Below, one piece after another: positions 11,689 through 44,568 of a stretch of 64,000 bases of DNA. The notes under the pieces are model-generated. The model was not told the origin of the DNA. It was given only the letters and a program-made list of their open reading frames with translations, and did not search any database. Positions within the stretch are counted from its first letter, which is position 1; the number at the start of each line of letters is the position of its first letter. Source of the DNA: an uncultured delta proteobacterium. GTDB lineage: Bacteria; Desulfobacterota; BSN033; UBA1163. A program made the position numbers and the translations under genes. The DNA lies in assembly GCA_963731045.1 (NCBI GenBank), contig CAVSVC010000052.1, positions 102,947 through 166,946 of the forward strand. Reading direction: 5' to 3'.

Positions 11689-11689
11689 C

Positions 11690-22062: not shown

Positions 22063-22473
22063 TCAGTGTTCCTTCGGAAGCTCGCAGAGTTCGATGAGGA
22101 CGCCATTCGAGGATTTGGGGTGGACGAAGGCGACCTTCGTGTTGTGGGCCCCGGGCCGGGGAGTCTTGTCGATGAGGGTCGCTCCCTTTTCGATAAAGGC
22201 CTTCACCTCCGCCTCCACATCGTCCACCTCAAAGCAGATGTGATGGATGCCCTGACCTTTGGTCTCCAGGTACTTCGTCAGCGGAGAATCGGGTGCTGCG
22301 GGCTGGACCAGTTCGATGTTCGATTCACCGATCTTGAAAAAACCCACCTTCGTTTTCTGAGAGGTGACCACTTCAACCCCGGATAAGGTCAGCCCCAGCA
22401 CCTCTTCATAGAACTTTGTCGCCTCTTCAAGATTGTTAACGGCTACGGCAACGTGATTGATTTTTTTCAGCAT
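22063..22473 (-). CDS. mce: methylmalonyl-CoA epimerase (VOC/glyoxalase family)
   Basis: INHVAVAV..GQGIHHICFEVDD motifs are present. The ATG at 22473 is preceded by GGAGGAG. Confidence 0.85.
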   Translation of the reverse strand: MLKKINHVAVAVNNLEEATKFYEEVLGLTLSGVEVVTSQKTKVGFFKIGESNIELVQPAAPDSPLTKYLETKGQGIHHICFEVDDVEAEVKAFIEKGATLIDKTPRPGAHNTKVAFVHPKSSNGVLIELCELPKEH

Positions 22474-22641
22474 ATGAGACTCCTCCAATTTCGAAATCGA
22501 AGATCGCGCATCCCCCGCCTGACCCCTGCCTGCGGCAGGCAGGCCTTGAAAGGGAGGAAATGGCGAATTCCCTCGAACTCTGCAGAGAGGCAATGGGTTT
22601 TGTTTCTATGCTTCAGCCTTACGCCTTTCGCCTAATGGTGA

Positions 22642-23043
22642 CTATGCCGTGGTTTTAACGTTTTCGTGGATATATTTGATGATGTCTTCTGTTGAAGATC
22701 CCGGTTGAAAAATCTCCCGGATGCCCGCTTTCTTCAGTACCGGAATGTCATCGATCGGAACGATGCCCCCTCCGAAGACCAGGATATCTTCGGCCCCTTT
22801 CTCCTTGAGGATCTGAACCACCTTTGGAAAGAGATGGTTGTGGCCGCCGGACAGGCTGGAGAGACCGACAATATCCACTGCCTCCTGAATTGCGGCATTG
22901 GCAATCTGTTCGGGGGTCTGCCGAATTCCCGTATAAATGACTTCCATTCCAGCGTCTCTCAGGGCCCGGGCGATGACCTTGGCGCCCCGGTCATGGCCAT
23001 CCAGCCCTGGCTTTGCAATGAGTACTCGAATTTTTCGAGCCAT
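22642..23043 (-). CDS. methylmalonyl-CoA mutase small subunit (cobalamin-binding domain), copy 1
   Basis: [22 protein letters not shown] (DxHxxG B12-binding motif). The ATG at 23043 is preceded by AGGAGG. Confidence 0.9.
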
Positions 23044-23146: not shown

Positions 23147-24802
23147 TTAGCGTTCTCTGTGTTCTCCGAAGACCTCCCTCAAGGTGTCGGAAATCTCACC
23201 CAAAGAGGCATAGGCCTTCACTGCCTCCAGGATGGGCGGAACCAGGTTTTCCGTTCCGATCGCCGCCTTCTTGAGGATGGCCAGTGTCTCCTTTACCTTC
23301 GCATTGTTTCGCTCATTCTTGACCTTCGAAAGCTTCTCCCTCTGGTATAGCTCCATCTCGGGCTTAATTCGGAGAATATTCCGGAGGGGTTCTTCTTCGA
23401 TTTGAAACTGATTGATTCCGACAATGATCCGTTTCTTTGTTTCGATTTCTTTCTGGTACTGATAGGCACTGTCGGCAATCTCTCCCTGCATGTATCCTGA
23501 CTCAATGGCCTTGATGGCGCCGCCCATGTCTTCAATCTTCTGAATGTATTCCGTTGCCTTTTTCTCGATTTCCAGGGTCAGGGCTTCCACCGCATAGGAG
23601 CCTGCCAGAGGGTCGATGATGTCGGCAACGCCGCTTTCATAGGCAATCAACTGCTGGGTTCTCAAGGCGATTCGAACGGAGTCCTCTGTCGGAAGGGCAT
23701 AGGCCTCGTCCTTTGAGTTGGTGTGAAGGGACTGGGTGCCTCCGAGAACGGCGGCAAGGGCCTGGAAGGCAACCCTGACCACATTGTTATCGGGCTGCTG
23801 GGCCGTCAGGGAACAGCCCGCCGTCTGAGTGTGAAAACGCAACATACAGGAATCGTCTTTCTTTGCCTTGAATCGTTCCTTCATGATCTTTGTCCAGAGT
23901 TTCCGGGCGGCCCTGAATTTTGCCACCTCCTCGATGAAGGTGTTGTGGCAGCAGAAGAAGAAGGCCAGCCTGGATGCAAAGGAATCCACGTCCAGACCTG
24001 CCTTGATGGCAGCCTCGACGTAGGCAATCCCGTCGGCCAGGGTAAAGGCGACCTCCTGAACCGCCGTGCACCCGGCTTCGCGCATGTGGTAGCCGCTGAT
24101 ACTGATCGTATTCCAGCGGGGGGTCCTGTCTTTGCAGAAGGCAAAGAGATCCGTCACGATGCGCATCGATTCCAGGGGAGGGTAGATATAGGTGCCCCTT
24201 GCGGCGTATTCCTTGAGGATATCGTTCTGGATGGTTCCCTGGACAACGTCGGATTTGACCCCTTGTTTTTCCGCCACAGCGATGTACATGGCCAGAAGAA
24301 TGGCTGCCGTGGCGTTGATGGTCATCGAGGTGGAGACCTTGTCCAGTGGGATGCCGTCAAATAGGATCTCCATATCCCGAAGGGTATCGATCGCAACCCC
24401 CACCTTCCCGACCTCTCCCTCTGCCAGGGGATGGTCCGAATCGTAGCCGATCTGGGTTGGAAGATCGAAGGCGACACTCAATCCGGTCTGTCCCTGGTCG
24501 AGGAGGTATTTATAACGTTTGTTGGTCTCCTCCGCCGTGGCAAACCCCGCATACTGACGCATCGTCCAGAACCGGCCGCGGTACATGGTCGGCTGAACCC
24601 CTCGCGTGAAGGGGACCTCTCCCGGGAATCCCAGGTCACGGCAGTAATCCATCTCCTCAACGTCCACAGGGGTATAAAGGCGTTTCTCTTCGATGTGGGA
24701 AGTCGTTTCGAAGGAAGGTTCCCGCTCCGGGGACCTGGAGAGGGCCTTCTTCAGAGTTGTCTTTTCCCATTGCTCAAGTCCTTCTCTTATCTTTTTCGTC
24801 AT
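23147..24802 (-). CDS. methylmalonyl-CoA mutase large subunit (substrate-binding TIM-barrel domain), copy 1; Tyr/Arg active-site pattern
   Basis: ..[43 protein letters not shown].. retains the Tyr (GYDSD) and Arg (AAR) that specify methylmalonyl-CoA. GAGGTG lies upstream of the ATG. Confidence 0.9.
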
Positions 24803-25032: not shown

Positions 25033-26607
<1,575 letters not shown>

Positions 26608-26768
26608 AGAACCTTTCTCCCCTCGTCTGAGAATCAAATCAAAAAACCCAAAACCCTCCCCCCATCCCTGCCCCTCAAGGGGGCAGGATAAGAGTGGAAG
26701 GATGTCATAGTATATACATCAAATTCTTCTTCTACACCACAAGATTCCGACTGGAGTTCAGTCGTCCT

Positions 26769-27716
26769 TTATCGGTCCCTGAGTTCTTCTGCAATCAATC
26801 TCTCCGCGATCGAATAGGGATCCGCCCGCCGACTCGTCAATTCATCGAGGAGCGTCTCCCATTTCCCTTCTCTTTCGATTCTGCCGATCAAGCGGGCCAT
26901 CACTTCCGTTTCAAGAATCCCGAGAAAGGTGGTCCTTGCCTTTTCTCTCATTTTCTTTTCCAGTTTATTGTTCTTTTCCATCGTCTGCCTGTGGCGATGG
27001 ATTCCCTGGACCAGTTCCGCGATCCCCCTTCCCGAAATCGCCTCGGTTTTCAGAATCGGGACCTCCCAGACGGCCTCACGCCTTCTGCCCATTTCGAGAG
27101 CCATCCGCAGGTCCCTTTCCATCCTGTCCGCCCCTTCCCGGTCGGATTTGTTGATGACGAAAAGGTCTCCGATCTCGATGATGCCTGCCTTGATAGCCTG
27201 AATATCGTCTCCCAGCCCCGGAACGAAGATGACGATGGAGGTGTGGGCTGTATTCACGATCTCCACCTCGTCCTGCCCGACACCTACCGTTTCGACCAGG
27301 ACGATATCCTTTCCCATGGCATCCATGACATTGATCACATCCTGGGTGGACCGGGAGAGACCTCCGAGATACCCGCGGGTAGCCAGAGACCGGATGAAGA
27401 CCCCTTCATCGGTCGCGTGACGTTGCATCCGGATCCGATCACCGAGAATCGCACCTCCTGTGAAAGGGCTGGTCGGGTCCACAGCAACGATGCCCACGGT
27501 TTTCCCTTCCGTACGAAAGAAGTCCACCATCTTATCGACGAGGGTCGATTTGCCGGAACCCGGGGGACCTGTAATCCCGATGATATAGGCTCTTCCCGTC
27601 TTGGGATAGAGGTCCTTCAGCACCTCCATGGCGGAAGGGACCCCGTCGTCAATGTCCCGCATCAATCTTGAGGCGGCCCGGACATTCCCTTCTAAGATCT
27701 GTTCAGCAATACTCAT
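26769..27716 (-). CDS. meaB: methylmalonyl-CoA mutase-associated GTPase MeaB/ArgK
   Basis: GITGPPGSGKSTL P-loop, ..VETVGVGQ.., NKSD motifs. The internal ATG (MSIAEQIL) is taken as start. Confidence 0.85.
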   Translation of the reverse strand: MSIAEQILEGNVRAASRLMRDIDDGVPSAMEVLKDLYPKTGRAYIIGITGPPGSGKSTLVDKMVDFFRTEGKTVGIVAVDPTSPFTGGAILGDRIRMQRHATDEGVFIRSLATRGYLGGLSRSTQDVINVMDAMGKDIVLVETVGVGQDEVEIVNTAHTSIVIFVPGLGDDIQAIKAGIIEIGDLFVINKSDREGADRMERDLRMALEMGRRREAVWEVPILKTEAISGRGIAELVQGIHRHRQTMEKNNKLEKKMREKARTTFLGILETEVMARLIGRIEREGKWETLLDELTSRRADPYSIAERLIAEELRDR

Positions 27717-27840
27717 GACGATCACTCTTCGTTGATCCGGAAAATGAAACCTCACTCCAAGGAGCCACTGGAAAAAAGGCAGGGAGAACGAACTGCTCTG
27801 TGGCCTGGGGACGATGGCAGGGGCGTTGGCCGTGCGGATT

Positions 27841-29011
27841 CTATAAAGCCTTTCCTGGAACCCCGATGTGCCTTGCGATGACGATCCGCTGGACCTCCGA
27901 CGTCCCTTCGCCGATGTCCAGAAGTTTCTGATTCCGATAATGACGCTCCACAGCGTACTCCTTCATCAGGCCGTATCCGCCGTGAAGCTGAACCGCCTGG
28001 TTGGCTACCCGGTGGTACATCTCGGAACAGAACATCTTGGCCATGGCCGATTCCTTGGAGAAGGGCCGATGATGCTCGCACAACCAGCAGGCCTTGTAGA
28101 GGAGCAGCCTTGCCAATTCGATTTCAGTGGCCATGTCCGCCAATTTGAAGGCGTTGATCTGGAAGGAGCCGATGGGTCTTCCGAACTGCTCCCTTTCACC
28201 GGCATATTTCAGGGCCAACTCAAAAGCGCCCTGTGCTCCCCCCAATCCCATGGCTGCAATGCTCAGCCTTCCTCCGTCCAGGGTGGCCAGCATCTGGTGA
28301 AATCCATCACCCCGGCGACCGAGAAGATTCTCCTTGGGAACCCTGCAATCCGTAAAATAGAGTTCCCCGGTGTTGGAGGCCCTCCAGACCATCTTGCCGT
28401 GCATCGCCTTGGTTGTGAAACCCGGAGTCCCGTTCGGCACGAGAATACAGGAGATCTCGTTCTTCCCATCCTCCTGTTTTCCCGTGACGGCCTGAACCAC
28501 ACAGACTCCGCTCATCTCCGTGGTTGAGTTCGTAATGAAGATCTTGGACCCGTTGATGACCCAGTGGGTTCCCGTCCAGAGTCGCATTGGTTTTCGATGC
28601 TCCTGCATCGGAACCTGCGTTGGGCTCCGTCAGGCCGAAAGAAGCGAGGGTATTCCCGGAGCAGAGGTCAGGGAGCCATTTTCGTTTCTGCTCTTCACTT
28701 CCGTAATAATAGATGGGTGCGACTCCGAGGGAATTTCCCGCCGCCAGGGTGGCTGCTTGAGATCCATCGATCCTCGCGATCTCTTCGACCGCGAGGATGT
28801 AGGCGACGTAGCCCACATTGCTTCCCCCGTATTCCTCGGGGACGAAGGGGCCAAACAGTCCCAATTCTCCCATCCGTTTGGTCAGGGTGTAAGAAAACTC
28901 TTCTTTGTCGTCCAGTTCCTGGGCAATGGGTGCAATCTCTTTCTCGGCAAAATTGCGCACCATCTTCCTGAGCATCTGCTGCTCATCGGTCAGATCAAAA
29001 TCGAGTGCCAT
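27841..29011 (-). CDS. acyl-CoA dehydrogenase, frameshifted (~28575)
   Basis: N-part ORF 28307..29011 (MALDFDLTDEQQ..GSDAGASKTNATLDGN) and C-part ORF 27841..28608 (..HWVINGSKIFITN..YEGTSEVQRIVIAR). They join if one C of aaCCCac is removed. Confidence 0.8.
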
Positions 29012-29077
29012 GAAATCCTCCTAAACTGCATTGAGCATAGAGCAAAGGGCAGTCAGATGTCAATCTGAGAAACCTGC

Positions 29078-29176
29078 AACTGGAATAATGGAACAGTGGA
29101 ATGTTGGGTTAATCCAAGAATCTTTTAAAATCCGGAATCTCATCGGTTCCATCTTTCCAACATTCCATCTTCATTC
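29078..29176. repeat. octamer-repeat hairpin element (TGGAATAT-type), copy E1
   Basis: ctggaataatggaacagtggaatgttggg ... ccaacattccatcttcattcc. It is nested between GCATAGAGCA-type arms. Confidence 0.7.
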
Positions 29177-29204
29177 CCCTCGTCTATGCTCCATGCCCTG
29201 TGCA

Positions 29205-29787
29205 TTACTGTTCGTACGGAACCCAGTAATAGTCCAGCACCGTATTCGTAGGTTTTTTTGTTCTGAATTCGGCCTTCACCTTCATCCCGATGAGCGGCTC
29301 ACCGTAGAGGAGATAGCTCTTGGGGATCGTGGCCAATCCGGGGATCTCCACATCGATCTGCCAGTAAGGCGTCGAAAGCTCGATACCGATCCCTGCGTAA
29401 ACGACCTGAGTAAAGGCGTAGATCGTGCCGATCACCGGGTTGGGCAAGCGTCTTCCAGTTCATCTCCGTGTGGCAGTCGGGACAGTGGCCCCGGGGTGGA
29501 ATCCAGAGACGTTTTTCCGGGCAACGACCGTTTGGACAACGGGTGGCCATCAGTTTGCCCTTCCTCAATCCCTCAAAGAAAGGGGAAAGCATTCCGTAGG
29601 TATGAACATGGGTAATCGATCGGGGCCATTCGATCACCGTGGCCGGTTTGTCCTGTCGGATTTTCGTTACTTCCCCGGTAAATTTCGTTTCTTTCCTTTT
29701 GCTTGGCTGGGCTTTCTTCTTGACCGGAGCGATCTTCTTGGTCTTTGCCTGAACTTTTTTCTTTATCTCCACCTTTTTCTTTGCCAT
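29205..29787 (-). CDS. DUF35 OB-fold/zinc-ribbon protein (BbsA/SCPx-thiolase partner) with Lys-rich N-terminal tail; frameshifted (~29440-29460)
   Basis: ..RCPNGRCPEKRLWIPPRGHCPDCHTEMNWK.. (ORF 29299..29787) continues as ..PVIGTIYAFTQVVY.. in ORF 29205..29447. The break is at a CCC run. The N-terminus is MAKKKVEIKKKVQAKTKKIAPVKKKAQPSKRK, with AAGGAGG upstream of the ATG. Confidence 0.75.
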
Positions 29788-29809
29788 AAGGTTTTTCCTC
29801 CTTTCCCCT

Positions 29810-31181
29810 TTACCAGTTCTTTCTCAGGATGCCTACGGTCACATGCGAACCCACACCCGCATGAGAAACCCAGAGGGCCTGTTTGCCCGTTTCGGGGATC
29901 TGGAGACTCTGCCAGTCCTTGGGTTTCTCTTTGCCCCATTTCTTCCAGATCTTCGAATCACCGTGGAATTGATCATATTTCTGCTGCAATTGCCACAGAC
30001 ACTCGGCGGCCTGAAATATCCCGGTCGCACCTACGGCATGCATCGTTCCCAGAAGGCCGCCGGAAAGGTTGGAAGGGCATTTGCCGCCATAGTAGGCATC
30101 CCCGGATTCGATATAATCCTGCTCCTGGCCGTAAGGTCTGAGACCAATATCTCCATAGGTCTGGAGATCGCTTATGGTGAAGGCGTCGTGAAGCTCTACG
30201 AGATCCAGATCTTCCAATGGGTTTTGAATGCCGGCCATACGGTAGACCAGCCAGGCTGCAAATCGGGCCGCAAGGAAGCTCTCAAATCCGGGGAACCGGC
30301 TCCCTTTTTCAGTGAGGCTCCTTATACGTCTCCGGTGTCTCGTGGGGGAGTAAAGGAATTTCCATGGGGCGCCGGTCCGCCACCCGCAAGGTATGGGTGC
30401 CTCCGCAGATAAAGAGCTCACAGGGATGATCGGTTAATTTGTAGGCGGTCTCCTCGTCGCAGACCAGGGCACAGGCCGCCCCGACGCTCATGGCACAGCA
30501 TTCCAGAAACCGAAGCGGGTAAGCGGATATGGGGCTCTTCAGGACTTCCTCGACGGTGTGCTTCCCGGGTTGCTGGGCATAGGGGGAAGAACAGGCATAG
30601 AGACGGTTCTTGACGGCGATCTTGGCCCGTGTGACCTCGGAGACGTTGAAGGCCCAGGCAAACCGGTTGGCCATGGGGGCATAATAGGAAGAGTAGATCC
30701 GACCCAGACGGGTTTCAAAGTCCTTGCATGCCGCGGTGGAGATGTAGAAGTTCCCCGTACGGGTGTCGACCTCGTCCATCCGCTCCCAGCCGGCAGCCAG
30801 GGCCACATTGGCGTACCCGGAGGCAACTGCCATGGCGGCATTGAGTATCGTTGATCCTCCGGTCGCCCCGCCGGTCTTGATCCCCGTATTGTAAAGAGGA
30901 TCGAGCCCCAGATAGTCGTGGATCTTTGCCTCACAGAGAAGTTGATCCTGAAAATGGTCGGCAAACTCCCCGTAGGCCGCGTAATTGATCAGCCCCTTGA
31001 CCTCCAGGGGATCCATTTTGAGATCGTTGTCTTCGAGCAGGTTCTTGAAGGCGATCATCACCAGTTCTTCCAGTTTGTACTCGGGGAAAAATTTCCTGTA
31101 GGCGGTCGTTCCCCCGGCCACCATGAAGACCCTTCGATTCCACTTCGGGATTCTTAAGTTGCCTTCTTTGAATGTGATCAT
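29810..31181 (-). CDS. SCP-x type thiolase family protein (thiolase-like, DUF35-associated), frameshifted (~30330-30380)
   Basis: N-part ORF 30309..31181 (..MVAGGTTAYRKF..) and C-part ORF 29810..30421 (..FESFLAARFAAWLVYRMAGIQNPLEDLDLVELHDAF..GGLLGTMHAVGATG..). A 5-C homopolymer at about 30341 is the likely indel site. Confidence 0.75.
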
Positions 31182-31367
31182 GCCGGTCCCTCCTGAACTC
31201 GTAGTGGTGCCCCGTCACCCTGAAAGGTGTTTCCCCGTGGGCGTTCCCTTTCAGTCCCGACCTTCTGCTCCATAACTCATAACGCCGAACTTTACAACCC
31301 TCCCTTCTTCCCGAAGATCCGTCCGGGATTATCACGTTCGACATCTTGAACTCCGGAGTTCCAACTC

Positions 31368-31775
31368 TCATTGGCGCGGTTTTATGTTCTCCCTGCCCCA
31401 TTGAACTGCGGTGTCAATCGGTGTTCCCGGGGTGAAAACGGCCTTCACTCCGATTTGCCTGAGCCGGGGGATGTCTTCTTCGGGAATGATTCCTCCGCCG
31501 AAGACCAGAATGTCCTCTGCTCCTTCGTTCTTAAGAAGTTCAATCACCTTCTCGAAAACATCGTTGTGGGCTCCTGAAAGGATCGACAATCCGATCCCGT
31601 CGACGTCTTCCTGAATGGCGGTGGCGACAATCTGCTCGGGTGTTTGATGGAGGCCGGTGTAGATGACCTCAAAGCCTGCGTCCCGAAACCCCCGGGCAAT
31701 GACCTTGGCTCCCCGATCATGGCCATCCAGACCCGGCTTGGCGATGAGGATTCGAATCTTACGGTCCGAAACCAT
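31368..31775 (-). CDS. B12-binding small subunit of acyl-CoA mutase, copy 2
   Basis: [22 protein letters not shown] motif; paralog of 22642-23043. Confidence 0.9.
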
Positions 31776-31949: not shown

Positions 31950-33623
31950 TTAAAAGTATCCCGGGTCTGTGTATCTCCCGAATACGTCCCGCCACACATC
32001 GCAGATCTCCTGGATCGTGGCGTATTCCCGCACCGCCTGGATGAGGTACGGCATGAGGTTTTCGCCGTCCAGGGAGGCCTTCCGAACCTGATCGAGAAGT
32101 TCTCTCACCCTGGCGTTGTTTCGGCTCTCCTTGACCTCCCTGAGCCGCCGGATCTGTCTCTCTTCAATCTCGCGTTTCATCCTCCAGATCGTAATCGGGG
32201 CGTGTTCGGTTGCGTACTTGTTCACTCCGACGACGACCCTTTCTCCCGAATCGACCTGCTTCTGGTACGTGTACGCAGCCTGAGCCACTTCAGACTGCGG
32301 ATAGCCCCGCTCAATGGCCGCCACCATGCCTCCCATGCCATCGATCTTCCGGATGTATTCCCAGGCCTGCTCCTCCATCCGACAGGTCAGGGCCTCCACA
32401 AAGTAAGAACCGGCCAGCGGGTCCACCGTGTTTGTGACGCCTGTCTCCTCCGCAAGAATCTGCTGAGTCCGCAGGGCGATGGTTGCCGCTTCCTCCGTTG
32501 GAATGGCGTACGTTTCATCGAGGGAATTGGTGTGAAGGGACTGGGTTCCTCCCAGCACGGCAGCCATTGCCTCGTAAGCCGTGCGAACGACGTTGTTGAA
32601 GGGTTGCTGGGCCGTCAGGGAACACCCCGCGGTCTGGGTATGAAACCGCAGCATCCATGAACGGGGGTTCTTTGCCAGAAATCGCTCGCGCATGATCCTG
32701 GCCCAGATCCTCCGGGCGGCCCTGAACTTGGCAATCTCCTCGAAGAAATCGATGTGGGAGTCGAAGAAGAAGGAGAGCCTTGGAGCAAACTCATCCACGT
32801 TCAGGCCCCTCTCGATGACGGCCTCCACGTAGGCAATCCCGTCGGCCAGGGTGAACGCCAATTCCTGAACCGCGGTGGATCCGGCCTCCCGGATATGATA
32901 TCCGCTGATACTGATCGTATTCCAGCGGGGGACATGGCGGGTGCAGTATTCGATGGTGTCGACGATAATCCGGAGAGAGGGCTTGGGTGGGAGCATGAAG
33001 GTCTTCTGGGCAATGAATTCCTTCAGCATATCGTTCTGAATGGTTCCGCCAAGATTGCGCCGGCTGAATCCCTGCTTCTCCGCCACGACAAGATACATGG
33101 CGAGCAGGATGGCGGCCGGAGGATTGATGGTCATGGAGGTTGTGACCTGATCCAGGGGAATGCCCGCGAAGAGAATTTCCATGTCTCTGAGGGTATCGAT
33201 GGCCACTCCACATTTTCCGATCTCTCCCCTGGCCATCGGAGAATCGCTGTCGTAGCCCATGAGGGTAGGGTAGTGAAAGGCAACGGAGAGACCGGTTTCC
33301 CCGTGTTCGAGAAGATAGCGGAACCGCTTGTTCGTTTCTTCCGGTCCTGCCAACCCTGAAAACATGCGCATGGTCCAGAGCCGGCCCCGGTACATGGACG
33401 GTTGAACACCCCGGGTGAAAGGATAGACCCCCGGAAACCCGATGTCTCTGGAATAGTCGAGGTCTTTCATGTCTTCAGGGGTATAGAGACCCTTGATCTC
33501 CAGATCGGAGACGGTTGTAAAGCGGGAAAGACGTTCTGGGGTTGCCGAGAGAAATCTCGAAAGACCTTCCGTCCATTTCCGCTTCTCTTCGTCAAGCTTC
33601 TTCAGGTGGTCCTCTTTGAACAT
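31950..33623 (-). CDS. acyl-CoA mutase large subunit (methylmalonyl-CoA mutase family), copy 2; Tyr/Gln active-site pattern
   Basis: ..GYDSDSP.. keeps the Tyr, but ..[17 protein letters not shown].. has Gln where copy 1 and canonical MCM have Arg. The ATG at 33623 ([10 protein letters not shown]) is preceded by GGGGGTGG. Confidence 0.85.
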
Positions 33624-33752: not shown

Positions 33753-35687
33753 TCAGCAGACCTCTTTGATTTGAGCGATGATCTGGTCGGTCCTGAAATG
33801 TCTCAGGCTGATCGCTCCGGAAGGACAGACGGCGTTGCAGGCTCCGCACCCCTTACACAGGGCCTCGTTGACCGCCATGATTCTGCAGTAGGGATCGATC
33901 TTCAACGCCCGGTATTCGCAGACCTGTTCGCAAAGGCCGCATCCCGCGCAGAGAAGACGATCCACGACCGCGGTGATGGGTTCGATTTTCACTCTTCCCG
34001 CGAAGAGAGGGGTTGTCGCCCTGGAGGCTGCGCCGTGGGCCTGAGCGAGGGTGTCGCTGAGATCTTTGGGCCCCTGACAGGCCCCTGCCAGAAAGATCCC
34101 TTCCGTCGCCGTATCCAGGGGACGCAGTTTCGGATGAACTTCCAGATAGAACCGATCGGGCCCTTGGGAGAGTTTGAGAAGACCCCGCAGATGATCCGCG
34201 TCCTTTCTCGGGGTGAGGCCCGTTGCGAGGACGACGAGATCGGCCTCCTCTTCGTAGGGCTCTCCCAGGAGTTCATCCTCCGCCTTGACGATCAGTCTTT
34301 CCCCTTTCCGGTAGATCTCGGAAGGGATTCCTTTTCTGTAGAAAATGCCTTTTCGTTGGACCTGATCGTAGAATTCTTCATGGCCCTTTCCAAAGGCCCG
34401 CACATCCATATAACAGACCGTTACCCGTGCGGCGGGGAACCGGTCCTTCAAGAGACCGGCCTGCTTTGCCGTATACATGCAGCAGACCCTGGAGCAGTAT
34501 TCGTTCCCCACGGTTTTATCTCTTGATCCCACACATTGAATGAACAGAATGCTTTCGGGTTCCTTTTCATTGACGAGAAGTCTGCCCCGGGTGGGCCCGT
34601 CCTCGGCAAGGAATCGTTCCAATTCAAGACCCGTGATCACGTTCCTGTAACGGTCGTATCCATACTCGGGCTTCAGCCCGGGGTCGAAGGGGTCATATCC
34701 TGTGGCAACGATGATGGCTCCCACCTCGATTCTGAGTTCGACTCCGACCTCTTCAAACCGAATCGCCCCCTCCGGACACGCCTCTCTGCATCCGGCACAT
34801 TCCCCCCTGGTGAGGAAGAGACAGTTCTCCGAGTCAATGAGATAGGCAGAAGGAACGGCCCGGGGAGACGGAAGATAGATTGCCGTCCGTTCGATCAATC
34901 CCGAATCAAATTCACTGGGGACTCTCACGGGACAGACCTCTTCACATTTCTTGCACCGATTACATTTTTCCGGGTCGACGTACCGGGGATGATGCCTCAC
35001 CCGGACATTGAAGTTTCCCACATATCCTTCCACTTCCACGACCTCCGACTGAGGAAGGAGATGAATCAGGGGGTGGTTCGACACCTCCTCCATCTTGGGA
35101 AGGAGATGGCTGGCGGTTTCCTCAAGAGTAGGAAAGGTGCGATCCATCTTCAAAAGCTGTCCGCCCAGGGTCGGGGATTTTTCCACTAAGTAAACCTCAA
35201 AACCCGCGCGGGCGATATCGAGGCTGGCCTGAATGCCTGCAAGGCCTCCGCCGATGACCAGAACGGCAGGAGTGACATTGACCTCCTTCTCCTGCAGGGG
35301 TTCGTGGCGGGAGACCTTTGCAACGGCCGCAGCGATGAGGTCCATTGCCTTGAGGGTCCCTTTTCCCTTATCTGGATGAACCCACGAACATTGTTCGCGG
35401 ATGTTGGCCATCTCGAAAAAATAAGGGTTGAGTCCGGCGGCTCGTACAGCCTTCCGGTAGGTCAGTTCATGCATCCGCGGGGAACAGGCCGCAACCACAA
35501 TCCGATCAAGACCCAGGTTCCGGATATCGTTCTTGATCAGATCCTGGCCCGGGTCGGAACACATGTACTGGTAGTCTCGAACCATGGCCACAGAGGGAAG
35601 CGTCCGGGCAAAGGCCGTTACCTGACCGATATCCACTGTTGCGGCAATGTTGACCCCGCAGTGACAAACGTAAACACCAATTTTCAT
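33753..35687 (-). CDS. heterodisulfide reductase subunit A-like flavoprotein (HdrA-like, FAD + multiple [4Fe-4S])
   Basis: N-terminal KIGVYVCHCGVNI Cys cluster, GGGLAGIQAS FAD motif, internal CNRCKKCEEVCP and C-terminal CAGCGLCEQVC..CKGCGACNAVCP ferredoxin motifs. Length is 644 aa. Confidence 0.85.
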   Translation of the reverse strand: MKIGVYVCHCGVNIAATVDIGQVTAFARTLPSVAMVRDYQYMCSDPGQDLIKNDIRNLGLDRIVVAACSPRMHELTYRKAVRAAGLNPYFFEMANIREQCSWVHPDKGKGTLKAMDLIAAAVAKVSRHEPLQEKEVNVTPAVLVIGGGLAGIQASLDIARAGFEVYLVEKSPTLGGQLLKMDRTFPTLEETASHLLPKMEEVSNHPLIHLLPQSEVVEVEGYVGNFNVRVRHHPRYVDPEKCNRCKKCEEVCPVRVPSEFDSGLIERTAIYLPSPRAVPSAYLIDSENCLFLTRGECAGCREACPEGAIRFEEVGVELRIEVGAIIVATGYDPFDPGLKPEYGYDRYRNVITGLELERFLAEDGPTRGRLLVNEKEPESILFIQCVGSRDKTVGNEYCSRVCCMYTAKQAGLLKDRFPAARVTVCYMDVRAFGKGHEEFYDQVQRKGIFYRKGIPSEIYRKGERLIVKAEDELLGEPYEEEADLVVLATGLTPRKDADHLRGLLKLSQGPDRFYLEVHPKLRPLDTATEGIFLAGACQGPKDLSDTLAQAHGAASRATTPLFAGRVKIEPITAVVDRLLCAGCGLCEQVCEYRALKIDPYCRIMAVNEALCKGCGACNAVCPSGAISLRHFRTDQIIAQIKEVC

Positions 35688-35700
35688 AACCTACCCGACT

Positions 35701-35887
35701 GGAAGACGGGAATATTGGAATATTGGAAGAATGGAATATTGGGTCAAAAAAAGAATCCAGAGAAAACAAGACGCTTTGTTCTTGTCGCTCGTTACTCCAC
35801 TATGCCCGTATTCCTTTTCTTTCTTCATTCCATCTTTCCATTTCTTCTGTATCATGGTTTTCCCATTGTTCCAGTATTCCATTCTTC
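35701..35887. repeat. octamer-repeat hairpin element (TGGAATAT-type), copy E2
   Basis: ggaagacgggaatattggaatattggaagaatggaatattgggtc ... ttccagtattccattcttccatcattcc. Confidence 0.75.
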
Positions 35888-35889
35888 CA

Positions 35890-37221
35890 TCATTCCGTTT
35901 TTCGTTTCCTTCCTCTTGCGAGCAGGGCACAGGCCTGAGAGGCTGCGCCGCTTGCCTGGGTAACCGTGTCGGGAATATCCTTGGGGCCCTGACAACACCC
36001 CGCGAGAAACACCCCCTCCACGCTGCTGAGGGTCGGATCGAGGCCGGGTGGTTCACCATAGAAGCGATCCGGCGATCTTTCCAGCCCGAGGATCTCCTTC
36101 AAGACATCCTCCTCTTTCCGGGGGGTGAGCCCCGCAGCCAGGACGACCAGGTCCGCTTCCAGTTCGAAAGGTTCGCCCAGAAGGGTGTCTTCTCCCCTGA
36201 CGATCAGTTTCCCGTTTCTCCGGTAGATCTCCGAAGGGTTGGCCCGCCGGTAAAGGACCCCTTCCTTTTGAACCCTTTCATAGAATTCCTCAAAACCCTT
36301 TCCAAAGGCCCTGACGTCCATATAAAGGACCGTGATCCGGGCGTCAGGGATTTTTTCCCTGAGAAGATGGGCCTGTTTGGCCGTAGCCATACAGCAGACC
36401 CTGGAACAGTATTCATTGCCCACGGTCTTGTCCCGTGATCCCACGCAGTGGATGAAGACAACCTCTCCGGGCTTTCTTCCCTCGATCAGGATTTCTCCTT
36501 TCGTGGGGCCCGAGGCGGAACAGAGCCTCTCGAATTCGAGGCCATGAAGAACGTTGGGATAGATCTTGTAGCCGAATTCGGGCTTGCGCCCCGGATCGAA
36601 GAGATCGAATCCCGTGGCCACGATGATGGCTCCCACGTCGATCTCGGTGATTTCTTCCCGGTCTTCGAAGAAGATCGCCCCTGCCTTGCAGGCGTCCACA
36701 CAGGTTTTCCTGCATTTGCCCCTGCTGAGCCACAGGCAGCTTCGGGGGTCAATCGCAGCTTTCAACGGCACGGCCTGGGGAAAAGGGATGTCAATGGCCC
36801 TTCGTGGGACCAGGCCCTCATTGAATTCAGAAGGAACGCCCTTCTTCAACGCACAGGCTTCCATGCAATCCCCGCAGCCCGTGCAGCGGTCCCGGAGAAC
36901 ATAGGTGGGTTTCTTTTTGACCTTGATCTGGAAGTGTCCGGCGCTTCCCCGGACCTCCGCCACTTCCGCACAGGTGTGGAGCCGGATCTTCGGATGATTG
37001 GCCGTATCGACCATTTTGGGTGTAATGATGCAGGCTGAGCAGTCGAGAGTGGGAAAGGTCTTATCCAGCTGGGCCATATGGCCGCCAATGGAAGAGCTCC
37101 TTTCGACCAGGTGGACGGTGAATCCTTTCTCCGCCATGTCGAGGGCCGCCTGCATCCCGGCGATGCCGGCGCCGATCACCAGAGCTTCGGGAATCACATG
37201 CTGCAACTGTTCGGTCTTCAT
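35890..37221 (-). CDS. HdrA-like FAD/FeS oxidoreductase, short paralog
   Basis: VIGAGIAGMQAA FAD motif, CTGCGDCMEAC ferredoxin motif, and shared ..HCVGSRDKTVGNEYCSRVCCM.. block with HdrA1. It lacks the N- and C-terminal Cys clusters of the longer paralog. Confidence 0.8.
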   Translation of the reverse strand: MKTEQLQHVIPEALVIGAGIAGMQAALDMAEKGFTVHLVERSSSIGGHMAQLDKTFPTLDCSACIITPKMVDTANHPKIRLHTCAEVAEVRGSAGHFQIKVKKKPTYVLRDRCTGCGDCMEACALKKGVPSEFNEGLVPRRAIDIPFPQAVPLKAAIDPRSCLWLSRGKCRKTCVDACKAGAIFFEDREEITEIDVGAIIVATGFDLFDPGRKPEFGYKIYPNVLHGLEFERLCSASGPTKGEILIEGRKPGEVVFIHCVGSRDKTVGNEYCSRVCCMATAKQAHLLREKIPDARITVLYMDVRAFGKGFEEFYERVQKEGVLYRRANPSEIYRRNGKLIVRGEDTLLGEPFELEADLVVLAAGLTPRKEEDVLKEILGLERSPDRFYGEPPGLDPTLSSVEGVFLAGCCQGPKDIPDTVTQASGAASQACALLARGRKRKTE

Positions 37222-37414: not shown

Positions 37415-38569
37415 TTATTTTAGTTTTCCCATCAGGGCCGAGGCGATGGTGTTCTTCTGGATCTCCTTGGTTCCTTCGTAGATCTCCGTGATCTTTGCAT
37501 CGCGGTAGAACCGTTCCACTTCATATTCGGTGATATAACCGTAGCCTCCGTGAATCTGGATGGCTTCATCCGCCACCTCCACCGCCGTTTTGGCCGCGAA
37601 CATCTTTGCCATGGAGGTGAGTTTCGGATCGATCTTCTTCCGGTCGAAATTCCAGGCGGCCTTGTAGGTGAGCAATCTGGCTGTCTCGATCTTGGTCGCC
37701 ATGTCGGCGAGTTTGTGCTGGGTCGCCTGAAAGTCAATCAGGCGTTTGCCGAACTGTTTCCTCTGCAGGGCGTACTCCAGTGCCCGGTCAAAGGCCCCCT
37801 GGCTGATTCCCAGGGCCTGAGCCGCGATTTCGATCCGGCTTTCATCGAAGAACTCAATGACCTGGTAGAAACCTCTGTTCTCTTCACCGATCAGGTGGGA
37901 TGCCGGGATGGTGACGTCACTGAACGAAATCTCGGCCGTCGAGGTCATGCGGATGCCCATCTTGGGGGTGATTTCCGTCGCCTCCAAACCCTTTGTTCCC
38001 TTTTCCACCAGAAGGGTACACTGGCCGCGGTAAGGAGGATGGGCATGGGGATTCGTCTGGCAGAGGACGATAAAGAAGTCCGCAATCGATCCGTTGGTGA
38101 TAAAGGTCTTCGTTCCGTTGATCACAAAGGTATTGCCCTGTCTGGTCCCCGTCGTGGAGAGTGAGGTAATATCACTTCCATGGTCAGGTTCCGTGTAAGC
38201 ACCGGCGGAGATCGCTTCGCCTTTGGCCACGGGAATGAGAACTCTTTTCTTCTGCTCCGCCGTTCCGAAGTGGAGGATGATCTCCGAGGAGAAGTCGACG
38301 AGGCTCAGAGCGATCCCCACTCCGGAATCCTTGCGGCAGAATTCCTCCACAATCAGAATATTTTCAAAAACACCATATCCCTGGCCTCCATACTCCTCGG
38401 GGTAGTGGATACCGACAAATCCCAGTTTGCAGGCCTTCTTCCAGAGCTCTCTCGGAAAGGTATGGGCCTGTTCCCACTGAAGGATTTTCTCCTTGTCAAA
38501 TTCTCCCGCGGCAAAGCCTTTCGCTGCCTGCTGAATGTCCTTCTGCTCTTCCGTCAACTCGAAGTCCAT
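37415..38569 (-). CDS. acyl-CoA dehydrogenase
   Basis: Intact ACAD with MDFELTEEQKD N-terminus, ..EPDHGSDITS.. and ..IYEGTKEIQK.. C-terminus. GGAGAAG lies upstream of the ATG at 38569. Confidence 0.9.
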   Translation of the reverse strand: MDFELTEEQKDIQQAAKGFAAGEFDKEKILQWEQAHTFPRELWKKACKLGFVGIHYPEEYGGQGYGVFENILIVEEFCRKDSGVGIALSLVDFSSEIILHFGTAEQKKRVLIPVAKGEAISAGAYTEPDHGSDITSLSTTGTRQGNTFVINGTKTFITNGSIADFFIVLCQTNPHAHPPYRGQCTLLVEKGTKGLEATEITPKMGIRMTSTAEISFSDVTIPASHLIGEENRGFYQVIEFFDESRIEIAAQALGISQGAFDRALEYALQRKQFGKRLIDFQATQHKLADMATKIETARLLTYKAAWNFDRKKIDPKLTSMAKMFAAKTAVEVADEAIQIHGGYGYITEYEVERFYRDAKITEIYEGTKEIQKNTIASALMGKLK

Positions 38570-38600
38570 CGCTCGCTTCTCCAAGGAATAATGAAAGAAC

Positions 38601-38727
38601 ACTGGAATAGTGGAATCTGGAATATTGGAATCATGGGATCATAAGAGAGTCTTAAAACAGTTCATTGTCTTGTTCTGGATTTTCTGCTGTACCCAATATT
38701 CCAATCTTCCATTATTCCAATTTTCCT
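38601..38727. repeat. octamer-repeat hairpin element (TGGAATAT-type), copy E4
   Basis: actggaatagtggaatctggaatattggaatcatggg ... cccaatattccaatcttccattattccaatttt. Confidence 0.7.
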
Positions 38728-38733
38728 TTCCTT

Positions 38734-39714
38734 TTATTTTTGTTTCATTCCCTTGATCTTTTCTTTGAGCACGGGAATGATCTTGAACAGATCCCCTACG
38801 ATGCCGTAGTGGGCGAAGCTGAAGATCGGCGCCTTGGGATCCTTATTTACGGCGATGATCGTTCCGGCCCCTTTCATGCCTGCCATATGCTGAAAGGCGC
38901 CGCTGATTCCAAGGGCGAGATACACCTTGGGCTTCACAGTCTTTCCGGACGTTCCCACCTGACAGGCCTTCGGAAGCCACTTCTTGTCCACCACAGGTCG
39001 GGAACAGGAGAGGGTTCCCCCCACGGCGTCAGCGAGCTCTCTCACAAGGGGCAGGTTTTCGGGATCCTTGATTCCCCTTCCCACGGAGATCAGGATATCT
39101 GCCTGTGTAATGTCCACCTCGCCCGCTGCGGCCTCCACGTACTGGAGAAAGCGCTTTGGAAGAAGTTCGTCGGTCAGAGGAGAAGGCAACGGGGTGATCC
39201 GACCTTCCATGGGACCATTTTCCGAGGAAGAGAAGGCCCCCGGCCGGACTGTGGCCAGGTAGGGACCCGGTTTCCGGAAGGAGACCCTGGCGTTCATCTT
39301 CCCGGCATAAAGCTGGCGGGTCACGGAGAGGGATTCCCCCTCCACATCGACGGCGATACAGTCGGTCGCCAGGGGAATTCCCATGGACGCGGCAAGGCTT
39401 GGCGCAAGGTCCATTCCCATGCCGGTGTGCCCCATCAGCGTCAGGAAGGGTTTCTTCTCCGACAGGAGCCCGGTCAAAACTTTCTGATAGGTTTCAGAGT
39501 TGAAGACGTCGAGGCGGTCGTCTTCAATGAGAAAGACCTGGTTTGCTCGTGATTTGAGCGCCTCTGCGAAATGTCCGACCCCTTTTCCAAGGAGGGCAAC
39601 ATGAATTTCCCCTCCCACATCCCTCGCCAATTGTCTCCCTTTGGAAACCATCTCCCACGTGATGTCCCTCATCTCCCCGGTTCGATGTTCGGCGACAACG
39701 AGAATCTCCTTCAT
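38734..39714 (-). CDS. etfA: electron transfer flavoprotein alpha subunit (EtfA/FixB)
   Basis: 326-aa product with the FAD-binding C-terminal domain (..VYLALGISGAFQHMAGMKGAGTIIAVNKDP..). Confidence 0.9.
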   Translation of the reverse strand: MKEILVVAEHRTGEMRDITWEMVSKGRQLARDVGGEIHVALLGKGVGHFAEALKSRANQVFLIEDDRLDVFNSETYQKVLTGLLSEKKPFLTLMGHTGMGMDLAPSLAASMGIPLATDCIAVDVEGESLSVTRQLYAGKMNARVSFRKPGPYLATVRPGAFSSSENGPMEGRITPLPSPLTDELLPKRFLQYVEAAAGEVDITQADILISVGRGIKDPENLPLVRELADAVGGTLSCSRPVVDKKWLPKACQVGTSGKTVKPKVYLALGISGAFQHMAGMKGAGTIIAVNKDPKAPIFSFAHYGIVGDLFKIIPVLKEKIKGMKQK

Positions 39715-40506
39715 CTATGCCAGACCTCCTTTTTCTTTCAGGATCTCCAGAATCTTCAGCGAGACCTCTTCCGGATTTCCATCGAGAAGAGCGGCCCCCT
39801 GTCCGACAGAAGGAAGAAAGAGGTTCTCCACCCGAATGGAGGACCCGGAAAGGCCCGCTTCCTCCGGTTTTATGTTGAGGTCTGCTGCTCCGAGCGTTTT
39901 GATCTCTTTCTTGGCCACCTTTCGGATCCCCATGATGGAAACATAACGGGGCTCGTTGATTCCGGTTTGGAGGGTGAGAACGGCGGGGAGGTCGATTTCC
40001 ACCACTTCCTCCAATCCTCCTTCAAGCTCCCGGTGAACGGTTGCTTTGTTCTCTTGAACGTCAAGCTGATTGACCAGGGATGCATGGGGAACGCCAAGGA
40101 GTTCCGCGAGGGTGACACCGACCTGCCCGTACCCGTCATCCTCCGCCTGGGTTCCTGTAAGAATGAGATCGTAAGGCATCTTCCGGATGGCCTCAGACAG
40201 GACCTTCGCCGTGGCAAAACCATCCGATTCCTCGAAGGTGGGATCGGTCAGCCGGACGGCATCTTCCGCACCCATGGCGAGGCATTTCCGGAGGGTTTCA
40301 TTCGATGTCTCTCCCCCCATGGAGACAACCGTTACGGTTCCCCCATGCTTTTCTTTCAATCGAATCGCCTCTTCAATGGCATAGGTGTCCCATTCGTTGA
40401 GATCGAAGGCCAGTCCGCTCTGGTCGATTCCTCTTCCCGATTTGTCGATGGAAATCTCTGCATCGGCCGTCTCAGGAACCCGCTTCACGCAGACGATGAT
40501 GTTCAT
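39715..40506 (-). CDS. etfB: electron transfer flavoprotein beta subunit (EtfB/FixA)
   Basis: 263-aa product with MNIIVCVKRVPE.. N-terminus; its stop abuts the etfA start. Confidence 0.9.
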   Translation of the reverse strand: MNIIVCVKRVPETADAEISIDKSGRGIDQSGLAFDLNEWDTYAIEEAIRLKEKHGGTVTVVSMGGETSNETLRKCLAMGAEDAVRLTDPTFEESDGFATAKVLSEAIRKMPYDLILTGTQAEDDGYGQVGVTLAELLGVPHASLVNQLDVQENKATVHRELEGGLEEVVEIDLPAVLTLQTGINEPRYVSIMGIRKVAKKEIKTLGAADLNIKPEEAGLSGSSIRVENLFLPSVGQGAALLDGNPEEVSLKILEILKEKGGLA

Positions 40507-40526
40507 TCACATCCCCCCTTCGTTAA

Positions 40527-40650
40527 ATTGGAAATCCGAATATCGAATATCGAAGTCCGAAACAAATCCCAAATTCAAATTTTAAAAACTCTTGTCCGAT
40601 CTTTGGTTCATTCGAATTTTTGTCTTTCGAGCTTGTTTCGAGCTTCGAAT
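40527..40650. repeat. hairpin with CGAATAT tandem units and near-perfect 20-nt inverted arms
   Basis: cgaatatcgaatatcgaagtccgaaac ... gtttcgagcttcgaatttcg. The arms differ by 2-3 nt and are separated by a loop of about 60 nt. Confidence 0.55.
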
Positions 40651-40664
40651 TTCGTGCTTAGAAT

Positions 40665-41894: not shown

Positions 41895-42209
41895 CTAACC
41901 CTTCAATATCTCCCTGGAAGTGACGATCCGTTGAACCTCGGCCGTCCCCTCATAGAGGGTTGTTCCAAGACGGAACCCGGGGGTTCCCTTTTCAAGACGA
42001 AGGCGCTGATCCCCTTGCTTTTTTTCGCATTCCGGTCGGCGACCGCCCAGGTGACGGTGACGCGAAGCCTCACCGCTCGTAATCAGGGTTTTGGTGCCGT
42101 TCAGGACATAGGATTCTTTCTGGCGGGTGGCTGTGGTGCGGATATTGGCCGCATCCGAACCGGTAGTATTCCGGATTATTTCCTGTTCGGGGGTCAGACG
42201 GAATTCCAT
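41895..42209 (-). pseudogene. acyl-CoA dehydrogenase remnant (internally deleted)
   Basis: About 105 aa hold only the ACAD N-terminus (MEFRLTPEQE), a mid-block (GSDAANIRTTA..YVLNGTKTLITSG) and C-terminus (YEGTAEVQRIVTSREIL). The roughly 280 residues between them are missing. Confidence 0.6.
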
Positions 42210-42224
42210 GGGCTGGTCAGATTT

Positions 42225-44461: not shown

Positions 44462-44568
44462 CTCCTTTTTAGAAGGGGTTGATGCATTGGATCTATGACC
44501 GCCGGCAGGGCAGTCACATCGCATGCATTTAAACCGTTCAAGACGGGTACTTGCCGATCATGAACGCC

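Follow-up and report, generated by a model that had tools for sequence, protein, structure and literature searches.

The stretch of DNA analysed here (64 kb, the window) carries two split B12-dependent mutases, and the question raised by the second of them, mutase-2, is which acyl-CoA it rearranges. The first-pass annotation had read its active site as an atypical Tyr/Gln combination and had proposed a non-carboxylated or otherwise different substrate. Both mutase pairs were recovered on the minus strand where that annotation had placed them (ORFs and Pfam), and all peptide strings that it had quoted were present.

The two mutase pairs

31950..33623, minus strand: mutase-2 large subunit, IcmA-like (PF01642 MM_CoA_mutase at full length, E=1.8e-229)
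31368..31775 (or 31784), minus strand: mutase-2 small B12-binding subunit, IcmB-like (PF02310, E=2.4e-26; TIGR00640)
23147..24802, minus strand: mutase-1 large subunit, Tyr/Arg split methylmalonyl-CoA mutase (MCM)
22642..23043 (or 23067), minus strand: mutase-1 small B12-binding subunit, with the motif DGHDRG

The mutase-2 large subunit comprises 557 aa when counted from the Met common to its homologues, and the ORF reaches 33641. Residue numbers used here (Phe94, Ala121, His123, Gln212, Tyr248/His249) follow the 563-aa ORF count. The radical/catalytic residues Tyr248/His249, equivalent to MCM Tyr243/His244, are retained, and the DxHxxG base-off/His-on motif of the small subunit reads DGHDRG (residues 20-25). 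TIGR00641 matched mutase-2 with 810 bits (cut-off 304). NCBIfam returned subfamily-level names only, for both mutases of the window. All database labels seen for mutase-2 and its relatives were the generic 'methylmalonyl-CoA mutase', and its close matches in the plasmid collection were labelled 'methylmalonyl-CoA mutase family protein' only. A Streptomyces parvulus plasmid match was considered as IcmA-like and rejected, being a Tyr/Arg split mutase.

Assignment of the active-site columns

The Tyr89 column of MCM was fixed by the PDB pair 1REQ_A (wtirqYagf) and 5REQ_A (Y89F, wtirqFagf), which differ only at this position (SEQRES index 88). The numbering was checked by the same count, which gives Arg207, Tyr243 and His244, and by an offset of 11, which gives Ile90, Asp117 and Gln208 of HcmA. 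MCM Tyr89 is located in the motif W-T-x-R-Q-Y-A-G-F and not in GYDSD, the Tyr of which had been taken for a substrate-carboxylate determinant. The GYDSD Tyr is conserved in MCM, kept in HcmA and absent from IcmF, which has LYGENPD there. Since HcmA acts on a substrate without a free carboxylate, and IcmF does without this Tyr, it is not a carboxylate determinant.

Alignments of mutase-2 to 1REQ, 2XIJ and 4R3U (46-50% identity) were gap-free around both columns. The Tyr89 column is occupied by Phe94 in mutase-2 ([10 protein letters not shown]; WTMRMFSGL) and by Tyr in mutase-1 (WTMRQYAGF). In the Arg207 column, Gln212 of mutase-2 (KEFIAQKTF) and Arg of mutase-1 (KEYAARGTY) were found, as had been annotated, and the column of HcmA Asp117 holds Ala121. 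With Phe94 and Gln212 in these two columns, mutase-2 is, as read from its sequence, a Phe/Gln enzyme with the canonical isobutyryl-CoA mutase (ICM) pair. The same columns hold Phe583 and Gln727 in the PGAP-annotated IcmF of P. megaterium (L082), and the 144-residue spacing of these residues agrees with that of the published F598/Q742. F94 and Q212 are invariant across the 120 closest database homologues listed. Mutase-2 keeps the unmodified ICM pair at the positions equivalent to Phe598/Gln742, where pivalyl-CoA mutase (PCM) has family-specific substitutions.

A new class of specificity based on a Tyr/Gln hybrid site can practically be dismissed. Gln does occupy the Arg207 column, and no Arg was seen at the 207-equivalent position, but the Tyr89 column holds Phe94 and the GYDSD Tyr is another residue, so that the 1REQ/5REQ-anchored alignment refutes the hybrid at the Tyr89 column. 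The true pair is Phe/Gln, the very ICM hallmark against which the supposed hybrid had been contrasted.

The generic database labels would make mutase-2 a redundant second methylmalonyl-CoA mutase. This is scarcely credible: mutase-2 has lost the two carboxylate ligands, a genuine Tyr/Arg paralogue lies 7 kb away, and mutase-2 scored below the cut-offs of the NCBIfam MCM equivalogs.

The best PDB sequence match was HcmA (4R3U, E=1.7e-174), and Gln is common to both enzymes at the 207/208 column. This could point to a hydroxyacyl-CoA mutase (HCM/RCM) that interconverts 2-hydroxyisobutyryl-CoA and 3-hydroxybutyryl-CoA. Such an activity is nevertheless very unlikely for mutase-2, in which Ile90 is replaced by Phe and Asp117 by Ala; HcmA and its Methylibium PM1 orthologue are both I/D/Q. 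Moreover, HcmA is 50% identical to the Tyr/Arg enzyme mutase-1 and 49% identical to mutase-2, so the top match is no sign of shared specificity, and HcmA falls outside the Phe/Gln clade described below.

Relatives, phylogeny and gene order

The closest relatives of mutase-2 (~85% identity) were found in MAGs of Syntrophorhabdus and "Syntrophaceae". The phylogenetic tree covered split Phe/Gln and Tyr/Arg mutases and HcmA, and mutase-2 grouped in it with genome-predicted ICMs of syntrophs. In this tree, mutase-2 and L001-L005 form a clade (99.5% bootstrap) that is nested in a large split Phe/Gln clade covering Syntrophomonas, Smithella, Syntrophobacter, Chloroflexota and others, with HcmA and the split Tyr/Arg clade outside. 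The relative of mutase-2 carried Phe/Gln in 69 of the 80 fetched genome loci at full-length alignment, and in 3 more over shorter alignments. We know of no biochemically characterised enzyme from this particular split Phe/Gln clade.

Synteny around mutase-2 is conserved in L002-L007. The order shared with the ~85% relatives is HdrD-like/EtfBA/acyl-CoA dehydrogenase (ACAD)/two HdrA-like genes/mutase large and small subunit/ACAD/MeaB/carboxyltransferase/MCM. Most loci that are more distant read mutase large subunit, small subunit, MeaB, with MeaB right behind the small subunit. Tyr/Arg paralogues adjoin the Phe/Gln mutase in L004, L005, L031 and L034.

The loci L046, L048 and L054 of Syntrophomonas/Syntrophomonadaceae belong to the same Phe/Gln clade, carry the signature WTxRMF[SA]G / LKEFIAQKT and encode mutases with 62% identity to mutase-2. 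In Syntrophothermus lipocalidus, a cluster of split ICM and MeaB genes (Slip_0757-0760), related to a sulfate-reducer group, has been assigned from the genome to the isomerisation of isobutyrate to butyrate (PMC5017805), and similar split ICM genes have been reported for Syntrophomonas BUT1 (PMC6687939). We infer that the Syntrophomonadaceae loci of the L046 type are tied to Slip_0757-0760; S. lipocalidus was absent among the 120 listed homologues of the Syntrophomonas L046 protein.

Genes surrounding mutase-2

29810..31181, minus strand: SCPx-type thiolase-like gene, with one frameshift near 30300-30420
29205..29787, minus strand: DUF35-like gene (zinc ribbon and apparent OB-fold part), with one frameshift near 29450
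27841..29011, minus strand: short-chain ACAD, 90-92% identical to the intact 389-aa ACAD of L002
26769..27755, minus strand: MeaB G-protein chaperone, between the two mutase units (PF03308, E=2.4e-93; TIGR00750, 348 bits, cut-off 241)
25033..26637, minus strand: carboxyltransferase of the methylmalonyl-CoA decarboxylase alpha / transcarboxylase 12S type
22063..22593, minus strand: glyoxalase/VOC-family protein, probably methylmalonyl-CoA epimerase
33753-35687 and 35890-37221, minus strand: two HdrA-like flavo-FeS proteins, immediately upstream of mutase-2 (arrangement kept in L002-L007)
37415-38602, minus strand: ACAD
38734-39714, minus strand: EtfA
39715-40506, minus strand: EtfB
40665-41828, minus strand: HdrD-like CCG FeS oxidoreductase
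42321-43172, minus strand: 3-hydroxyacyl-CoA dehydrogenase
43274-44524, minus strand: acetyl-CoA C-acetyltransferase-type thiolase

The thiolase, DUF35-like gene and ACAD that had been annotated downstream of mutase-2 were found there, the DUF35-like gene downstream of the thiolase. Each of the three carries one frameshift, which in the ACAD is an extra C within a C-run at ~28570. Pfam made no call on the DUF35-like gene of the window; its equivalents in the relatives match zf-ChsH2/OB_ChsH2_C. The ORF at 30931-31401 was rejected as a spurious overlapping frame. Genes at 37415-41828 together form an acyl-CoA oxidation electron-transfer module. A VOC/epimerase-like gene accompanies the Tyr/Arg mutase also in L005, L059, L074 and L080. 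Between 20 and 48 kb, Rfam yielded neither a riboswitch nor any other RNA family. Elsewhere in the window, an AT-skewed, apparently ORF-free stretch at 50.8-51.9 kb is filled by a second Liv-type permease.

Proposed function

The large and small subunits of mutase-2 probably constitute a split isobutyryl-CoA mutase of the IcmA/IcmB type that feeds the beta-oxidation of butyryl-CoA. As an AdoCbl radical enzyme, mutase-2 would interconvert isobutyryl-CoA and n-butyryl-CoA, and Phe94/Gln212 in place of the carboxylate-binding Tyr89/Arg207 would suit the pocket to an uncharged alkyl group. The reaction is reversible; in the host, taken to be Syntrophorhabdia-like from the relatives at ~85% identity, it would most likely run from isobutyryl-CoA (derived from isobutyrate or valine) to butyryl-CoA. 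The latter could then be oxidised via the flanking ACAD/EtfAB/FeS oxidoreductase, 3-hydroxyacyl-CoA dehydrogenase and thiolase. MeaB, encoded four genes downstream of mutase-2, would be responsible for cofactor loading and repair, perhaps in both mutases. Carboxyltransferase, the Tyr/Arg mutase-1 and the epimerase would make up a canonical methylmalonyl-CoA unit of their own, serving propionyl-CoA. Weighing against the ICM reading are the identity of only 35% to IcmF, the frameshifts in the three genes next downstream and, as cited in PMC13248872, the failure of the sole cultured Syntrophorhabdus to grow with any of 88 further substrates, propionate included.

The earlier suggestion of a non-carboxylated or otherwise different substrate is upheld in its outcome and not in its reasoning. 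Mutase-2 is not an MCM, and most likely rearranges a short acyl-CoA, branched or straight and without a carboxylate, before beta-oxidation. The surrounding genes (ACADs, EtfAB, 3-hydroxyacyl-CoA dehydrogenase, thiolases) fit this; the argument from a hybrid site fails.

As one example, alkyl-/arylsuccinate degradation had been put forward. Mutase-2 would then be a carbon-skeleton mutase converting (1-methylalkyl)succinyl-CoA to (2-methylalkyl)malonyl-CoA, with decarboxylation of the product by the carboxyltransferase. Mutase, MeaB, carboxyltransferase, ACAD, thiolase/DUF35 and CoA ligases do occur in one region, and the thiolases of the relatives are weakly similar to BbsB, far below the cut-off. 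The substrates of such a pathway, however, retain a free carboxylate, and mutase-2 lacks the Tyr/Arg pair that binds it, including the Arg. The carboxyltransferase, the Tyr/Arg mutase and the epimerase occur together and form a normal methylmalonyl-CoA unit, and no glycyl-radical enzyme, activase or succinate-synthase genes were found anywhere in the 64 kb window. We consider this pathway highly improbable here.

The His123 substitution and the thiolase/DUF35 block

Two features of the locus bear on a specificity other than that of ICM. The first is His123, which replaces an Asp conserved in MCM, HCM, IcmF and 68 of the 78 aligned split Phe/Gln sequences. The 120 closest homologues listed all have His123 and Tyr124, and four further lineages within the Phe/Gln clade (L010, L061, L067 and L058) also carry His or Gln in place of the Asp. 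The second is the thiolase-like/DUF35-like pair that separates mutase and ACAD both in the window and in loci L002-L005. Such a pair of SCPx-type thiolase and DUF35 is superfluous for the oxidation of straight-chain butyryl-CoA and hints at 2-methyl-branched intermediates.

Mutase-2 could accordingly be an ICM-derived enzyme with shifted specificity, in which the change of Asp to His at position 123 and the SCPx-thiolase/DUF35 genes are adaptations to another non-carboxylated acyl-CoA. Candidates are 2-methylbutyryl/valeryl-CoA, isovaleryl/pivalyl-CoA and a C6 pair, e.g. 2-methylvaleryl/hexanoyl-CoA. We regard such a shift as unlikely. At the two positions known to determine specificity, mutase-2 has the standard ICM residues; only 7 positions are specific to the mutase-2 subclade, and no co-varying pocket change was found. 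The thiolase/DUF35 block is variable: it is missing in the otherwise syntenic L006/L007, and the genes of the window are non-orthologous to those of L002-L005 (25-32% identity). A covariation scan for a partner of His123 gave nothing consistent; loss of K/R at position 112 in the five His/Gln lineages was not significant (~560 positions tested). Nothing about a function of the conserved Asp (Asp139 in the human enzyme) turned up in a literature search.

A narrower version, which we rate as slightly less likely still, is that the mutase-2 orthogroup (Phe/Ala/His/Gln) is ICM-derived and specialised for longer 2-methyl-branched acyl-CoAs (for instance 2-methylbutyryl/valeryl-CoA or, at the C6 level, 2-methylvaleryl/hexanoyl-CoA) and works in concert with the neighbouring SCPx-thiolase/DUF35 genes and the HdrA-like/Etf/ACAD module. 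If this were true, and if the wider Phe/Gln clade of Smithella were alike, these enzymes would be candidates for the C6 rearrangement of dismutating propionate oxidation. This idea, also raised in the first-pass annotation, is not specific to the present locus, since the Phe/Gln clade occurs in many non-dismutating lineages as well. An altered specificity due to His123 would make the orthogroup a candidate for branched-chain rearrangement; nothing found demands that.

The preferred assignment remains the isobutyryl-CoA mutase, and the result is mainly a correction: the hybrid site arose from an error of alignment by eye, and the gene encodes a standard ICM-type split mutase, a typical representative of a group that is known and widely distributed. 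For annotation, the two paralogues can now be separated into propionyl-CoA/methylmalonyl-CoA and isobutyryl/butyryl-CoA metabolism. In reconstructions of Syntrophorhabdia-type organisms, a 'second MCM' could inflate the counted capacity of the propionate pathway.

Comparison with known systems

Mutase-2 shares the fold and radical machinery of MCM (P. shermanii 1REQ, human 2XIJ and mutase-1; 46-60% identity) and differs from it by Phe for Tyr89 and Gln for Arg207. HcmA/HcmB (4R3U) has the same split architecture, ~49% identity and Gln at the Arg207 column, but Ile90 and Asp117 where mutase-2 has Phe and Ala. The fused ICM-MeaB protein IcmF (PDB 4XC6; L082) agrees with mutase-2 in the Phe/Gln columns and the SGYH motif. 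It differs in that one polypeptide unites B12 domain, G-protein and barrel, with 35% identity, without GYDSD and with an insertion between the columns (spacing 144 versus 118 in mutase-2). Mutase-2 matched the IcmF model only far below its cut-off.

A characterised split ICM is IcmA/IcmB of Streptomyces cinnamonensis, with Phe80/Gln198 at the positions of Tyr89/Arg207. It resembles mutase-2 in its two-subunit architecture and in Phe/Gln; in Streptomyces, ICM supplies polyketide precursors and does not serve anaerobic catabolism. With the clusters of the Slip_0757-0760 and BUT1 type, mutase-2 has in common separate large and small subunits, a MeaB-like GTPase and an anaerobic, fatty-acid-oxidising host. 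Unlike in these syntroph ICM clusters, genes for thiolase, DUF35 and ACAD come between mutase-2 and MeaB, an adenosyltransferase was not seen adjoining the mutase, HdrA-like genes lie directly upstream, and His123 stands in place of Asp.

Split mutase pairs and gene neighbourhood

Both split mutase pairs called in the first-pass annotation were recovered on the minus strand, and all peptide strings quoted there are present in the window sequence. Pfam and NCBIfam assigned a full-length MM_CoA_mutase barrel to each large subunit and a B12-binding domain to each small subunit. DGHDRG (the DxHxxG motif) occurs in both small subunits.

Genes around mutase-1 and mutase-2 in order of transcription (ACAD, acyl-CoA dehydrogenase)
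First in order, minus: PaaK-like ligase
43274-44524, minus: acetyl-CoA acetyltransferase-type thiolase
42321-43172, minus: 3-hydroxyacyl-CoA dehydrogenase
41895-42299, minus: short ACAD fragment (134 aa, middle domain)
40665-41828, minus: HdrD-like CCG FeS oxidoreductase
38734-40506, minus: EtfB/EtfA
37415-38602, minus: ACAD
33753-37221, minus: two HdrA-like flavo-FeS proteins (644 and 443 aa)
31950-33623 (ORF to 33641), minus: mutase-2 large subunit
31368-31775/31784, minus: mutase-2 B12 subunit
29810-31181, minus: SCPx-type thiolase, frameshift at about 30300-30420
About 29205-29787, minus: DUF35-like gene, frameshift at about 29450
27841-29011, minus: ACAD, frameshift at about 28570
26769-27755, minus: MeaB
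25033-26637, minus: carboxyltransferase
23147-24802, minus: mutase-1 large subunit
22642-23043/23067, minus: mutase-1 B12 subunit
22063-22593, minus: VOC-family protein, probably methylmalonyl-CoA epimerase

A genome scan with mutase-2 returned 80 loci (L001-L080), with relatives 58-85% identical. L002-L007 have the core gene order of the window, HdrD-like/EtfBA/ACAD/HdrA-like x2/mutase L-S/.../ACAD/MeaB/carboxyltransferase(/MCM); more distant loci mostly retain mutase L-S-MeaB, and ACADs and thiolases often accompany it. In the window and in all of these close relatives (L002-L007), the HdrA-like pair separates the mutase from the ACAD/EtfAB/HdrD-like genes, which suggests a module for flavin-based electron bifurcation or confurcation linked to acyl-CoA oxidation. 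The ACAD fragment, located in a gap of ~490 bp between the HdrD-like and 3-hydroxyacyl-CoA dehydrogenase genes, is probably a truncated remnant; an ACAD-like gene occupies its place in L005-L007.

The thiolase/DUF35 segment (29205-31181), between the mutase-2 small subunit and the ACAD, behaves like a variable cassette. It holds one thiolase and one DUF35 gene in the window. The corresponding segment of L002-L005 (L002 12420-15855; L004 3360-6907) has two genes of each type, thiolase-like and DUF35, whose identity to the window's pair is only 25-32%, and that of L006 and L007 has none; the flanking genes are 58-93% identical. Three successive genes downstream of mutase-2 (27841-31181, minus) carry one frameshift apiece; in the ACAD, a C-run is one C longer than in L002 and L004. 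Either indel errors of the assembly or genuine decay of the block could account for these frameshifts; the mutase genes, like most of the genes around them, are intact. A 156-aa ORF between B12 subunit and thiolase (30931-31401, minus) was rejected as DUF35 gene: it is an overlapping frame, rich in Arg and Gly, that matches no family, and the zinc-ribbon gene is downstream of the thiolase.

The left part of the window (10297-16893, minus, and 873-10242) carries molybdoenzyme genes of the xanthine dehydrogenase family, two of them for large subunits and others for FAD and 2Fe-2S subunits. Also encoded there are a BKACE-family enzyme, a protein resembling ADP-forming acyl-CoA synthetases, another resembling arylmalonate decarboxylase, and a TctA/TctC transporter; this gene content recalls the catabolism of aromatic compounds or organic acids.

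Active-site residues

Mutase-2 columns (563-aa ORF numbering) were anchored by alignment to solved structures (1REQ, 5REQ and 4R3U). In the displayed stretch, P. shermanii 1REQ_A and 5REQ_A, the latter being the Y89F mutant, differ solely at SEQRES index 88 ('wtirqYagf' vs 'wtirqFagf'); this is residue 89, since SEQRES lacks Met1. The same count places Arg207 in 'kefmvRnty' and residues 243/244 in 'sgYHmqeag'. For 2-hydroxyisobutyryl-CoA mutase (HcmA, 4R3U), an offset of 11 gives Ile90, Asp117 and Gln208, in agreement with published numbers. Tyr89 of methylmalonyl-CoA mutase (MCM) therefore lies in W-T-x-R-Q-Y-A-G-F and not in GYDSD. MCM and HcmA, the latter an enzyme acting on a substrate with no free carboxylate, both keep the GYDSD Tyr, and IcmF lacks it ('LYGENPD'); this Tyr is thus no carboxylate determinant.

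The Tyr89 column holds Phe94 in mutase-2 and Tyr in mutase-1, the Arg207 column Gln212 and Arg, respectively, and the HcmA-Asp117 column Ala in both. The mutase-2 pair is thus Phe/Gln, named in the first-pass annotation as the hallmark of isobutyryl-CoA mutase (ICM). Of the Tyr/Gln hybrid proposed there, the Gln holds, while the Tyr was a mis-assigned residue. In the PGAP-annotated icmF of a Priestia megaterium plasmid, these two columns hold Phe583 and Gln727; their spacing of 144 residues equals that of F598 and Q742, the residues published for C. metallidurans IcmF.

Distribution and phylogeny

Phe/Gln was found in the relative at 69 of the 80 loci over full-length alignments and at 3 more over shorter ones; a Tyr/Arg paralogue adjoins the Phe/Gln gene in L004, L005, L031 and L034. 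The closest hosts are Syntrophorhabdus and 'Syntrophaceae' MAGs (84-85%), others including Syntrophomonas, Smithella, Syntrophobacter, Desulfobacterales and Chloroflexota/Dehalococcoidia. In a bootstrapped NJ tree, mutase-2 and L001-L005 formed a 99.5% clade nested within a split Phe/Gln clade, outside which HcmA and the split Tyr/Arg clade with mutase-1 were placed. F94, S95, H123, Y124 and Q212 occur in 120/120 of the best database homologues listed (>=84% identical). Wherever named by source, mutase-2 and its relatives bear the generic label 'methylmalonyl-CoA mutase'.

Streptomyces parvulus plasmid pSPA1 (L081 3995-6017) encodes a split large and small mutase with the MCM-type Tyr/Arg pair; split architecture is therefore no predictor of ICM specificity. 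A Binatia MAG (L077 10001-15384) has a tandem pair of Phe/Gln-type large-subunit genes, with a small-subunit gene after each of them; the second of the two large subunits is apparently split in two pieces.

His123

AFHYPT of mutase-2 places His123 (window about 33273-33275) where MCM, HCM and IcmF have Asp (AFDxPT), as do 68 of 78 aligned split Phe/Gln sequences. His123 is invariant in the mutase-2 orthogroup (120 closest homologues listed); His recurs in three other lineages (L010, L061, L067) and Gln is found in a fourth (L058). No co-varying partner of His123 and no literature on the conserved Asp were found on searching. Because of His123 together with the SCPx-thiolase/DUF35 neighbours, a specificity shifted to a longer 2-methyl-branched acyl-CoA retains a small chance.

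Proposed role

Residues, architecture, chaperone and clade agree in fitting mutase-2 to a split IcmA/IcmB-type ICM, as judged from sequence. Most likely, mutase-2 would convert isobutyryl-CoA to butyryl-CoA, which would then pass into the beta-oxidation and electron-transfer module that flanks the mutase. An ordinary methylmalonyl-CoA unit, handling propionyl-CoA, is made up of MeaB, carboxyltransferase, mutase-1 and epimerase, and MeaB may serve both mutases. A non-carboxylated substrate ahead of beta-oxidation, as first suggested, is retained; the atypical hybrid is not, nor is an alkylsuccinate-type role, as glycyl-radical or succinate-synthase genes were found nowhere in the 64 kb window. 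With respect to the C6 rearrangement suggested for Smithella, likewise not supported here, the methylmalonyl-CoA pathway alone is described in a review as studied at gene and enzyme level, and the split Phe/Gln clade of mutase-2 is widespread beyond Smithella too.

Slip_0757-0760 of Syntrophothermus lipocalidus (both subunits, adenosyltransferase and MeaB-like protein) were assigned to isobutyrate-to-butyrate isomerisation from the genome, with relatives noted among sulfate reducers (PMC5017805), and similar genes were reported for Syntrophomonas BUT1 (PMC6687939). The Syntrophomonadaceae loci of our set share the mutase-2 motif signature and may correspond to those published genes. Mutase-2 is a further member of an already known mutase group.
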